Source: Escherichia coli
Lineage (GTDB): Bacteria; Pseudomonadota; Gammaproteobacteria; Enterobacterales; Enterobacteriaceae
DNA length: 64,000 bases
Direction: 5' to 3' (one strand)
Assembly (NCBI RefSeq): GCF_024298765.1
Contig: NZ_CP101211.1
The position numbers were made by a program. Below, in pieces: positions 27,001 to 30,000 of the stretch. How positions within the stretch are numbered: the stretch's first letter is position 1; the number at the start of each line of letters is the position of its first letter.

Positions 27001-30000
27001 AGGCAAGTGCCTGCCGTCTTCTCTATGCCGCACTCCGTTAAAATTGAAAGTAGCTTTTCATGCGCCACTCTTGCAATGTCTGATACCAATTCCGGGGACA
27101 TGTTAGCTCCAGTGAAATTGTTAGATCGACTTAAACAGATAATAACTCAATATTTTCATGAAGTACTTGTGGGTTCTTAAACCAATAGCCGGAACCACAC
27201 ATCCAAGGTTCACCTGGGAAAACAAAACCTTCTTGAATAAGGTATTTGCGGAATAGGGGAGGCAGTACATTTTCAATTTTCAAAATGTAATTTTGTTCAT
27301 CTGCAATACATTTCAATTCTGCAAGAAGCGCTCTAAAAATGCCTGTGCCGGGCTCTTTAACTGAGATAGTTGAAACAACCATGACCGGATATCCCAGGAC
27401 CGAACACATGCCTGCTCTTGCCCGGATGTAGAGCTCCTCGAAATGGTGTAAGCCGTGTACATGAGAAGACCTTATGGGTATCTTACCATCTGATGCCTGC
27501 GTTATAAGGTCGGCGAAAACCTTTTTGATTTTCAGCAAATCTGCCTGAAAATTTTGATCGTTCAAAGGAAAATCAGATTGAGAATTTGTCATTACATATC
27601 TTATGTTTTAAAAACTTAACTTTGATAAAGCAAAGGAATACGCTGATCGTCATGTGATCCAAATTGAGCAATGAATTTTAATTCGGAACAGCTAAAGACA
27701 AAGCAGTAGGGTGCAATAATTCAGGATGTCGATACTATAAGAAGAATAGTGGTATGAATGTAGCAATTACCTCAATATGAGGGGGGCAACTGTTGATGCT
27801 GTACATACATACAGTATTTAACATAATCTTTGTTATATGTACTTATAAATCAATGACATAAGGTTTAAAGATCGTATGATCTACGCACTAGGTCATGGCT
27901 TGTAATGAGTGAAAAAAGGTTCAAGATTTTAGAGAAATGCTCCCAAGATCAACATGGCGGCATAAGTTTTCCAGCTTGACCAATCAATCGTGGAACCAAG
28001 CAACAGATAGAATGCCAGGCCTACCAGCCCCAGCTTTACTACTATCCCAATTAATATGGTAAAGATAGACTCATCGCGTTCGCCTTTAAGTAATTTACAA
28101 CGCGTAATTAGATCGTCTTTTTTCATGTAGAATCCCTTAGAGTTATTAAAGTCCTGCATTAGAAGTTGTTACCTGCCGAAGTTACCTCGTATGAGTTAAC
28201 TGTGGCTCCAAACATACAAAATATAAGCTGTGCCAATTGAAAGGATTAGAAAAGCACAGTTACTAATAAAATCTACTAATGCTTGTAGCTTCTTTAGTCT
28301 CACTATTGCTGGACCGTGTTCAGTAGAGGTACTACTCAGCCCTTTTGTTCTGGCACTCTCTGCTTTTCTGAAAAAATTGTAATGCAATCCTGACCGCAAG
28401 CAAAACCATGCCAAACCAGTCGTTATTACGATATTTATGTAGAAAGCATATTGAATCATTTGTTCAGTTTCGAAGCTTTCCATTGAAAACCCTTTGTTGA
28501 AATGTTGAATAAAATTATTTTTAGTAAATGTAAGCAATAAATAGAACGAATATTAATAGTGAAAGATGCAATGCCAACATCTGCTTATGATGCCTTATGA
28601 GGATTTCTTCCTTCGCATTCATTAAATCGTACATCTCATCAATATTTTTATTGCTGGTATATTCGAGACGTTCATCACGAAGTAATTTGAACTTTACCAA
28701 TACGACAAGTGATTTAATAATAAAGCTCGTAAGCATAACAGTTATAGACAAAAATAAAAAATAGGCCAAATTCATATATCACTCCATGGAGATTAATAGA
28801 AAAATTTATAATAAGTAATCTCATAGAGCATTACTTGAATCTTCTTCCCATACTAAGGACTCACCGAGAAATTTAGTTAAAGATGATTTGGCATACTGTG
28901 GTTCGGAAAAAAAACGTGGGAACCAGCCGTCAAAGCTTTGGGTACCATTGTGACGATTTTCAGGCGAGACTGATAAGCGGTACCCGTCTCCGTAAGGTGA
29001 AATGCTAAATGTGTATCCATCATCTGTCTTTGAGATCAGCGTTTTGCTTGTCATATGACTAATAGATACCGTTAACTCCTTTGGTGTTTGTATCACCGAA
29101 AGAAGAAACAATGCGCTTATGGCTGCAAAAATCCAGCAATATAATGATGCATCCATAAAACCAGCTACAACACTCGATCCCAAAAAAAACCAAAATAAAC
29201 TTATTAAGATTACTGAGTTTTCATTCATGTCTGTTCCTTGTTATTACTAATTATATTATGCTTTATAGTTGACCGTCAGACTACCCACGGGTTTTGACGA
29301 ACAAAGTCACGCACTCCATTTATACATGCTTTTGAGATGACTTCAAAATAAGGATGGTTTGATGGAATCATATTCCCGGTATTATCAAGAAGCATAATAG
29401 TCCCTAAAGACCGAACCAGTTGATATTCATTGAGCTTACGCTTTAGCAAAGTTTGCAATCTATAAATTGTCTCACCGGAACTGTTACCTTCGATACCTAC
29501 AACAGAGACCGTACAGTTCACTTCCTGATTATCAGATTGATAATCGAACCAGTAATTTTCGTTGTAATTTCCTTTTTGCGCATGCTCAATTTTGCCAGGC
29601 CATTTTACCCATAAAGAAGAGTTGTTTTTAGATCGTAAGATCTGCTTCAGCGTTTCCAATGGATTTTTTTCATCAACCTCAGACCAGGCCGAAATAAATT
29701 CTTTCTGCATTGCCTCAGGGTCTATAACGGCAATGAAATCAAATTCCTCTTTATTGATAGAGTTGGCTCGATCTTTGAGATAAAACAGACCGAGTTTATA
29801 TCCCTTTTCACTTTTCCAGTTTGCTCCCACAGGCTGATAGTCTGTATTTATAAACGGTTTGAAAGTGTGAGTGTCGGGAGAAAAAATTACTGAGGGTGCC
29901 AGCACCCGGCCTCGGTGTCGTATTGGATTTACATATATTTTTTCCCCGTCACATAACATTTCAATAATTGCTTTTGTCACAACTACTGAAATAGAAGGTC

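Follow-up and report, generated by a model that had tools for sequence, protein, structure and literature searches.

The window analysed here, 64,000 nucleotides of Escherichia coli contig NZ_CP101211.1, is part of an IncHI2 resistance plasmid. Its minus strand holds four small ORFs, which we call A (28821-29228, 135 amino acids, WP_001572392.1 in RefSeq), B (28521-28775, 84 amino acids), C (28196-28483, 95 amino acids, with its ATG at 28483) and D (27929-28126, 65 amino acids counted from Met12 of a longer frame, with its ATG at 28126). As the sequence-only reading had described, they lie between a thermonuclease gene pair (29276-30690, minus strand) and two further minus-strand ORFs of 153 and 135 amino acids (26694-27592), which were located by ORF scan. 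The member of the pair closer to ORF A, 47 nt upstream of it, encodes a 298-residue backbone protein of MOBH plasmids (WP_000975182.1; 29276-30172, minus strand), and the other encodes the thermonuclease itself, a protein of the SNase family with a hydrophobic N-terminal segment (30175-30690, minus strand; PF00565, E=4.6e-24). The 298-residue protein has relatives in IncHI1 plasmids (52% identity) and in IncHI3-like and IncT plasmids (about 25%), and its gene has an omega of 0.18-0.30 (Nei-Gojobori, IncHI2-like variants). It has no assignable function: a search against PDB sequences was empty, and its structural model (pLDDT 73) has no convincing structural neighbour.

A 3.2-kb region of the locus matches 1,140 plasmid records, mostly conjugative IncHI2/MOBH plasmids of 200-350 kb from Escherichia, Salmonella and Enterobacter. 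Absence of the ORFs from related plasmids, which the sequence-only reading had named as an argument against the cluster, is not what we find: the interval itself matches 1,112 records, 1,083 of which cover at least 80% of it, so that with more than 1,000 records conserving the segment this argument does not count against the ORF cluster. In about a thousand plasmids the ORFs are in fact already listed as hypothetical proteins, and a literature search by protein accession and on IncHI2 functional genomics turned up no work on ORFs A-D. On plasmid pSTM6-275 the segment is flanked by the sil/pco metal-resistance island on one side and by a tet(A) transposon on the other, and its neighbours are genes for a DUF4942 protein, an ATPase, a DUF1173 protein, Dcm, the SNase-family protein and several hypothetical proteins. 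Towards sil/pco no transfer gene is annotated for about 44 kb, and towards the transposon none for about 6 kb, and no toxin gene, defence effector or lysis gene is found near ORFs A-D in the window.

Coding evidence and predicted proteins

Of the interval 27900-29260, 90% is taken up by same-strand ORFs of at least 60 amino acids. When the sequence was shuffled 2000 times with its dinucleotides preserved and scored with the same strand and length rule, coverage had a mean of 15% and a maximum of 57%, and 0/2000 reached 90%, which bears out the earlier description of four co-oriented small ORFs on the minus strand. The four ORFs do not overlap one another, the gaps between them are 37-69 nt, and each ATG has a Shine-Dalgarno-like site, AAGG(A/G) or GGAG, 6-7 nt on its 5' side. 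In a codon-usage frame test the annotated frame ranked first of six for the A3 part of ORF A (see below) and for B, C and D, and the first 56 codons of ORF A gave an ambiguous result. Relative to the window, C of plasmid pEC361_1 carries an insertion of 12 nt that is in frame.

The size range of 76 to 135 amino acids reported earlier holds for the ORFs as they were then delimited, whereas D is likely to have 65 residues and C 95, the likely sizes of A and B being 135 (as a fusion) and 84. ORF C could also start from a TTG at 28537, giving 113 residues (28196-28537), but the start of its IncHI1 orthologue aligns with the ATG at 28483, which favours the 95-residue form. ORF D could likewise start at 28159, giving 76 residues (27929-28159). 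Here the shorter form is supported by pEC361_1, in which the point of a sequence exchange lies directly 5' of Met12 of D and the leader is common to D and to the lipoprotein cassette that replaces it.

According to Kyte-Doolittle hydropathy, all four ORFs contain hydrophobic segments, in agreement with the transmembrane helices predicted earlier for each of them, except that ORF A is membrane-like in its N-terminal third only. In ORF A the helix-like segments span residues 6-24 and 28-46, and about 85 soluble residues follow. ORF B has helix-like segments at 9-27 and 66-84, and ORF C, in the 95-residue form, at 13-29 and 76-92; in both proteins about 40-45 residues, eight of them Lys/Arg, form a loop between the two helices, so that each is a two-helix hairpin. 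ORF D has a single strong helix and a short hydrophobic C-terminus. No paralogy was detected among the small proteins of the locus.

The GC content of the segment is 34-38%. Scans for promoters and terminators returned counts equal to those expected from shuffled sequence, so the boundaries of transcription units cannot be drawn from them. A scan of 25400-31000 against Rfam found no relevant RNA family, only one sub-threshold chance match. Type I toxin-antitoxin pairs, in which a short hydrophobic toxin has an antisense or overlapping RNA, might be present if that RNA is a novel one, although a co-directional array of ORFs, each with a Shine-Dalgarno-like site, is not their typical layout. Annotation of the ORFs differs from record to record. 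In pSTM6-275, RefSeq calls A (135 residues) and D (65 residues) and omits B and C; in a GenBank submitter's annotation, A is reduced to its last 77 codons, and B (84 residues), C (95) and D (76) are all called.

That the proteins belong to no assignable family, as the sequence-only reading had stated, is borne out by every collection that we searched. ORFs A-D, the A1 and A2 proteins described below and the IncHI1 form of C have no significant match in Pfam, and the same holds in NCBIfam, PADLOC and PHROGs for ten ORFs of the window, A-D included. At E<=1, A-D matched 0 PADLOC families, and the best PHROGs E-values, 0.039-0.17, were all to families of unknown function. Searches of PDB and of known folds gave no significant match. 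Two labels were considered and set aside. DUF6693 scores 14.2-14.8 bits against C (E=0.03-0.05), compared with a gathering threshold of 31 bits, and matches 1/17 members of the C family; DUF3899, which UniRef attaches to the 84-residue protein B, is not reproduced by hmmscan against Pfam-A, which returns no family at E<=1.

ORF A and the six-gene form of the locus

Alignment with other IncHI2 plasmids indicates that ORF A is an in-frame deletion chimera of two unrelated genes, A1 and A3. In pMS7884A (NZ_CP022533.1) and pEC361_1 (NZ_AP027416.1), the same site past the thermonuclease/298-residue pair holds six genes in the order A1, A2, A3, B, C and D, with 104, 85, 77, 84, 95 and 65 residues, respectively. 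A1, which is intact in pMS7884A as WP_001005009.1, and A2 are each three-helix proteins, and A3 is a soluble, beta-rich protein that is usually unannotated. The B, C and D proteins of pMS7884A are 84-100% identical to those of the window, and A3 and residues 1-56 of A1 differ by 1-2 residues. The difference is that A1, A2 and A3 are separate genes in the six-gene form, which is 530 bp longer, whereas the window has a single fusion of 135 residues and has lost A2.

Both six-gene plasmids align with the window on either side of the junction 29060|29061, with the 530 extra bases between (positions 4135-4664 of the pMS7884A locus), and the breakpoints, read directly at the junction, have no microhomology. 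On one side of the junction, 29061-29228 (minus strand) corresponds to the first 56 codons of A1, which encode two of its three helices, with 1 nt difference in 168 nt. On the other, 28821-29054 (minus strand) encodes the complete 77-residue A3 protein, and the Ser-His between the two parts is the former untranslated leader of A3. The 530-bp segment contains the 3' end of A1, the whole of A2 (85 residues) and the leader of A3 with its ribosome-binding region. Because it takes in three genes, one by its end, one as a whole and one by its leader, parsimony strongly favours deletion over insertion, and we infer a deletion, the direction being taken from parsimony and gene content and not from a rooted phylogeny. 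In one step, such an event would have taken out A2 together with the end of A1 and the A3 ribosome-binding region, joining the A1 helices in frame to A3. Both forms are abundant, with about 649 records for the fused form (at least 99% identity) and about 445 for the six-gene form. The 135-residue "gene" of the stretch is thus better read as a deletion fusion, which may anchor in the membrane an A3 domain that is normally cytosolic, or may be an inert by-product.

Age and selection of the individual genes

The window and pMS7884A differ by too few substitutions to be informative about selection, and omega was estimated instead (Nei-Gojobori, within IncHI2-like variants) from more diverged copies that were recovered by protein searches. 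The values are 0.14 for A1, 0.19 for A2, 0.19 for A3 and 0.25-0.40 for B (dS 0.09-0.35). C and D gave 0.59 and 0.6, each on only 13-15 substitutions, and from these close-range values both could be drifting. For C, a longer comparison is provided by the IncHI1 plasmid pO111_1 (NC_013365.1), which has an orthologue of 99 residues (WP_000429174.1; 35% identity) with the same two-helix layout and the same start, as well as an orthologue of A3 (52% identity) in an unannotated ORF of 76 residues. Between IncHI2 and IncHI1, pS is 0.86 and pN 0.30 for A3, and pS is 0.75 and pN 0.42 for C. With pS saturated and pN well below it, A3 and C have been under purifying selection since the two groups separated.

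The locus of pO111_1 resembles that of the window in that A3 and C lie downstream of the thermonuclease/298-residue pair, with divergent Dcm and DUF1173 genes, and it differs in having a gene of the phospholipase D family between the 298-residue gene and A3, and in lacking A1, A2, B and D. B is seen on IncHI2-type plasmids only, and all relatives found in a search of 5.8 billion clustered proteins are at least 83% identical to it. D is likewise seen on IncHI2 plasmids only, as two alleles (100% and 84%), and the C family is limited to IncHI1- and IncHI2-like sequences. As judged from these distributions, the genes of the locus differ in evolutionary age, A3 and C being old IncHI genes and B and D small membrane ORFans of IncHI2.

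A3 has the widest distribution. Its family comprises 28 representative clusters at E<=0.001, on plasmids of several genera, including IncHI2 plasmids, Citrobacter MOBH plasmids (about 64% identity), IncHI1 (52%) and a Vibrio plasmid (34%), and shares the pattern VEPExRxNGTQxxDGxFPRxY...AKAxxTKxLG, followed by a Trp further on (...W). The family has no Pfam entry, its profile matches nothing among PDB sequences, and tblastn with A3 gave 0 matches in 50,697 phage records. Elsewhere, on large plasmids of the MOBH type, its members belong to long arrays of small genes that share one direction and have no Pfam match, and in a Citrobacter MOBH plasmid the A3-family gene adjoins a homologue of the window's 153-residue ORF. 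We found no conserved partner gene for A3 across unrelated loci, and the membrane ORFs B, C and D are missing beside it there. A3 is frequently missing from the RefSeq annotation of six-gene IncHI2 and of IncHI1 records, as C is missing in pSTM6-275. Both are to be read as conserved backbone genes of IncHI plasmids.

These data bear on the suggestion that the ORFs are functionless remnants in AT-rich, probably silenced DNA, kept by recent common descent and hydrophobic merely from T-rich codons. The GC content of 34-38%, the omega of about 0.6 for C and D at close range, the inconsistent annotation between records and the independent deletions, truncations and IS insertions in the segment (see below) would all suit that reading. 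On the other hand, ORF coverage is far above chance, omega is 0.14-0.40 for A1, A2, A3 and B, the A3 and C proteins are kept past synonymous saturation, the A3 family extends over 28 representative clusters and several genera, and a Shine-Dalgarno-like site precedes each ORF. We therefore consider remnants rather unlikely as an account of the locus as a whole. The signs of selection on B and on A1 to A3, and the old age of A3 and C, contradict the idea that the locus is pure junk, although D may be.

Variability of the site and proposed roles

The synteny that IncHI1 and IncHI2 plasmids have in common stops at the 298-residue gene, and the segment beyond it varies among sister plasmids. A through C are mostly deleted in p22C057LT1, and in p1-L2724hy IS elements directly follow the 298-residue gene and the A-D genes are absent; MOB-suite types both plasmids as conjugative. 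In pEC361_1, D is replaced by a lipoprotein gene, followed by genes for a DUF2726 protein and an S-4TM effector. Locus L013 has a truncated C followed by a DUF2913 gene and a trypsin-like gene, locus L010 retains a remnant of A2, A3, B and a mere remnant of D beside T6SS genes, and in pSG17-135-HI2 an IS903B copy lies inside D. From these comparisons, the site past the 298-residue gene appears to be a recombination-prone junction at which cargo is exchanged. The segment is nevertheless kept in about 97% of the IncHI2 records that bear the 298-residue gene, which could reflect either selection for a joint function or plain clonal descent. A reading of the four genes as one cassette is not supported by these results, as A is a fusion, the genes differ in age, and sister plasmids have lost, shortened or exchanged the segment.

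A variable site of this kind recalls defence islands, and the ORFs might accordingly act in abortive infection or another form of phage defence, as membrane proteins that depolarise the infected cell. The same site in other plasmids holds the genes for DUF2726, the pore-forming S-4TM effector, the trypsin-like protease and DUF2913, as would be expected of a hotspot. However, A-D have no PADLOC match and no significant PHROGs match, no sensor or enzymatic partner is adjacent, and A3 and C belong to the backbone and have been conserved by vertical descent, unlike shuffled cargo. Taken together, the evidence makes a role in phage defence very improbable.

Another possibility is that the ORFs encode immunity proteins, which are commonly small membrane hairpins, and that they shield the host from a toxin that acts on membranes, be it a bacteriocin or a T6SS effector of the plasmid family. 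In loci L010 and L011, T6SS genes and a VgrG-pyocin DNase do lie beside A3 and B, and T6SS genes also occur in p1-L2724hy. The DNase of L010, however, is already paired with an immunity gene of its own, of the Colicin_Pyocin family, and in the window no toxin or T6SS gene is adjacent. The SNase family is not known as a bacteriocin family, and IncHI1 carries the SNase gene without B or D. We regard immunity of this type as highly improbable.

The explanation that we favour, with moderate confidence, is that ORFs A-D are an operon-like, deletion-scarred run of independent small genes in the accessory backbone of IncHI2 plasmids, and not a four-part machine. The ancestral form would be a run of six genes past the thermonuclease/298-residue pair, which is common to IncHI1 and IncHI2, and the 530-bp deletion would have produced the form found in the window. 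The gaps of 37-69 nt, each without a convincing terminator, and the Shine-Dalgarno-like site of each gene suggest that the run is transcribed by read-through from an upstream promoter. B and C would be inner-membrane hairpins with their basic loops in the cytoplasm. By default, the proteins would act singly, as dispensable accessory factors (for instance on host envelope proteins or in plasmid carriage), and the roles that we propose do not include exclusion, toxin immunity or abortive infection.

A bolder version of this proposal, which we consider unlikely, is that A3 and C are an ancient IncHI module and that A3 founds an unrecognised family of soluble proteins of about 75 residues on MOBH-type megaplasmids, perhaps acting in establishment or anti-defence. 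In that case the 530-bp deletion would have created a membrane-tethered gain-of-function variant, now present in about 650 sequenced IncHI2 resistance plasmids. Plasmids of the IncHI2 group are a major vehicle for mcr, ESBL and heavy-metal resistance genes, and their backbone is largely unannotated. Should the genes prove to contribute to the carriage or establishment of the plasmid, the alleles with and without the fusion would offer a natural comparison of the two main sequenced forms of IncHI2. The chimera, the orthology with IncHI1 and the often-unannotated A3 family are the new points of the analysis, which uncovers no new system but corrects the reading of the stretch, and we consider them an incremental advance.

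The sequence-only reading had compared the layout with entry-exclusion, immunity or abortive-infection loci, a comparison that we do not uphold, as no tra genes, toxin or defence effector are nearby and exclusion in IncHI1 is assigned to other proteins, EexA and EexB. An exclusion function, in which one or more small inner-membrane proteins would block entry from related IncHI donors, is the least credible of the roles considered. Many exclusion proteins are indeed small inner-membrane proteins (PMC11493245), and C is conserved from IncHI1 to IncHI2. Against this, tra/trh genes are absent over about 40 kb on one side of the segment, the surroundings being a nuclease, a methyltransferase, sil/pco and a transposon instead; B and D are absent from IncHI1; no ORF matches an exclusion family of Pfam or NCBIfam; and IncHI2 plasmids that are typed as conjugative (p22C057LT1 and p1-L2724hy) lack the segment or have it in rearranged form. 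In IncHI1, exclusion is the work of EexA and EexB (PMC11493245), and these proteins of plasmid R27, which are membrane-associated, come from the same plasmid group and have an experimentally assigned exclusion function (PMC11493245), are one of the known systems with which ORFs A-D can be compared. It is the variable, tra-free context and the dispensability of ORFs A-D, rather than a comparison of sequences, that set them apart from EexA and EexB.

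Module border, downstream cassette and spacer

The sharp fall in GC content at about window position 25490-25560, from about 65% to about 36%, coincides with the end of a 606-aa ORF (23669-25489), and it marks where a GC-rich resistance module associated with tet(A) gives way to the IncHI2 backbone, which is AT-rich. On the backbone side lies a two-gene cassette on the minus strand, composed of a 153-aa ORF (27131-27592) and a 135-aa ORF (26694-27101). A PGTGIFRALL stretch in the 153-aa protein may, judged by eye, resemble GNAT, and a search of this ORF against Pfam gave no match. 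Its homologue in the Citrobacter plasmid p705SK3_1, which is 50% identical, adjoins an A3-like gene. Further copies of the 135-aa ORF of the cassette are found in two loci from related plasmids (L013 and L010).

The cassette is separated from D, the last of the small minus-strand ORFs (27929-28126), by an AT-rich spacer of 336 nt located downstream of D (27593-27928), in which a terminator scan revealed no terminator-like site. In pKO_1, ISKox3 is inserted in this spacer, 3' of D, and the same element is present in two more plasmids, somewhere within the 3.2-kb region.

Variable neighbours and the A3 family

In some IncHI2 plasmids the junction at the small-ORF locus is occupied by other cargo, as in pEC361_1 (L004 1-3001) and p22C057LT1 (L005 2780-4001). 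This cargo comprises genes for a lipoprotein of 73 aa that has a C-terminal helix, for a DUF2726 protein and for hypothetical proteins, together with one for a putative pore-forming effector of the S-4TM family. Such a content suggests a conflict-system cassette, swapped in at the start codon of D. Type VI secretion genes adjoin the small-ORF locus in some IncHI2-type plasmids (L010/L011 1-4528; L007 9047-9544); they encode a VgrG-pyocin-S DNase fusion with its immunity protein, as well as TssE-, TssA- and TssB-like proteins.

The 77-aa A3 gene (window 28821-29054; L003, the six-gene form of pMS7884A, 3895-4128; L008 6813-7043) has no RefSeq annotation in the six-gene IncHI2 plasmids, nor in IncHI1 plasmids. 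A3 belongs to a conserved family with 28 representative clusters, for which Pfam has no entry.

The 298-aa protein and the divergent genes

The 298-aa protein, encoded after the thermonuclease (29276-30172, minus strand), carries a CxxC...C motif at its N-terminus, and gave no match in Pfam, the PDB or fold comparison. It is a backbone protein common to MOBH plasmids, with 52% identity in IncHI1 and about 25% in IncHI3-like and IncT plasmids; in the IncHI3-like plasmids its homologue is adjoined by ParA/ParB and Ig-like genes. A DNA cytosine methyltransferase gene, an ORF of 55 aa and a gene for a DUF1173 protein (30863-33902, plus strand) are transcribed divergently from the thermonuclease/298-aa pair. 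They are part of a backbone module, and their order together with that pair is conserved between IncHI1 and IncHI2.
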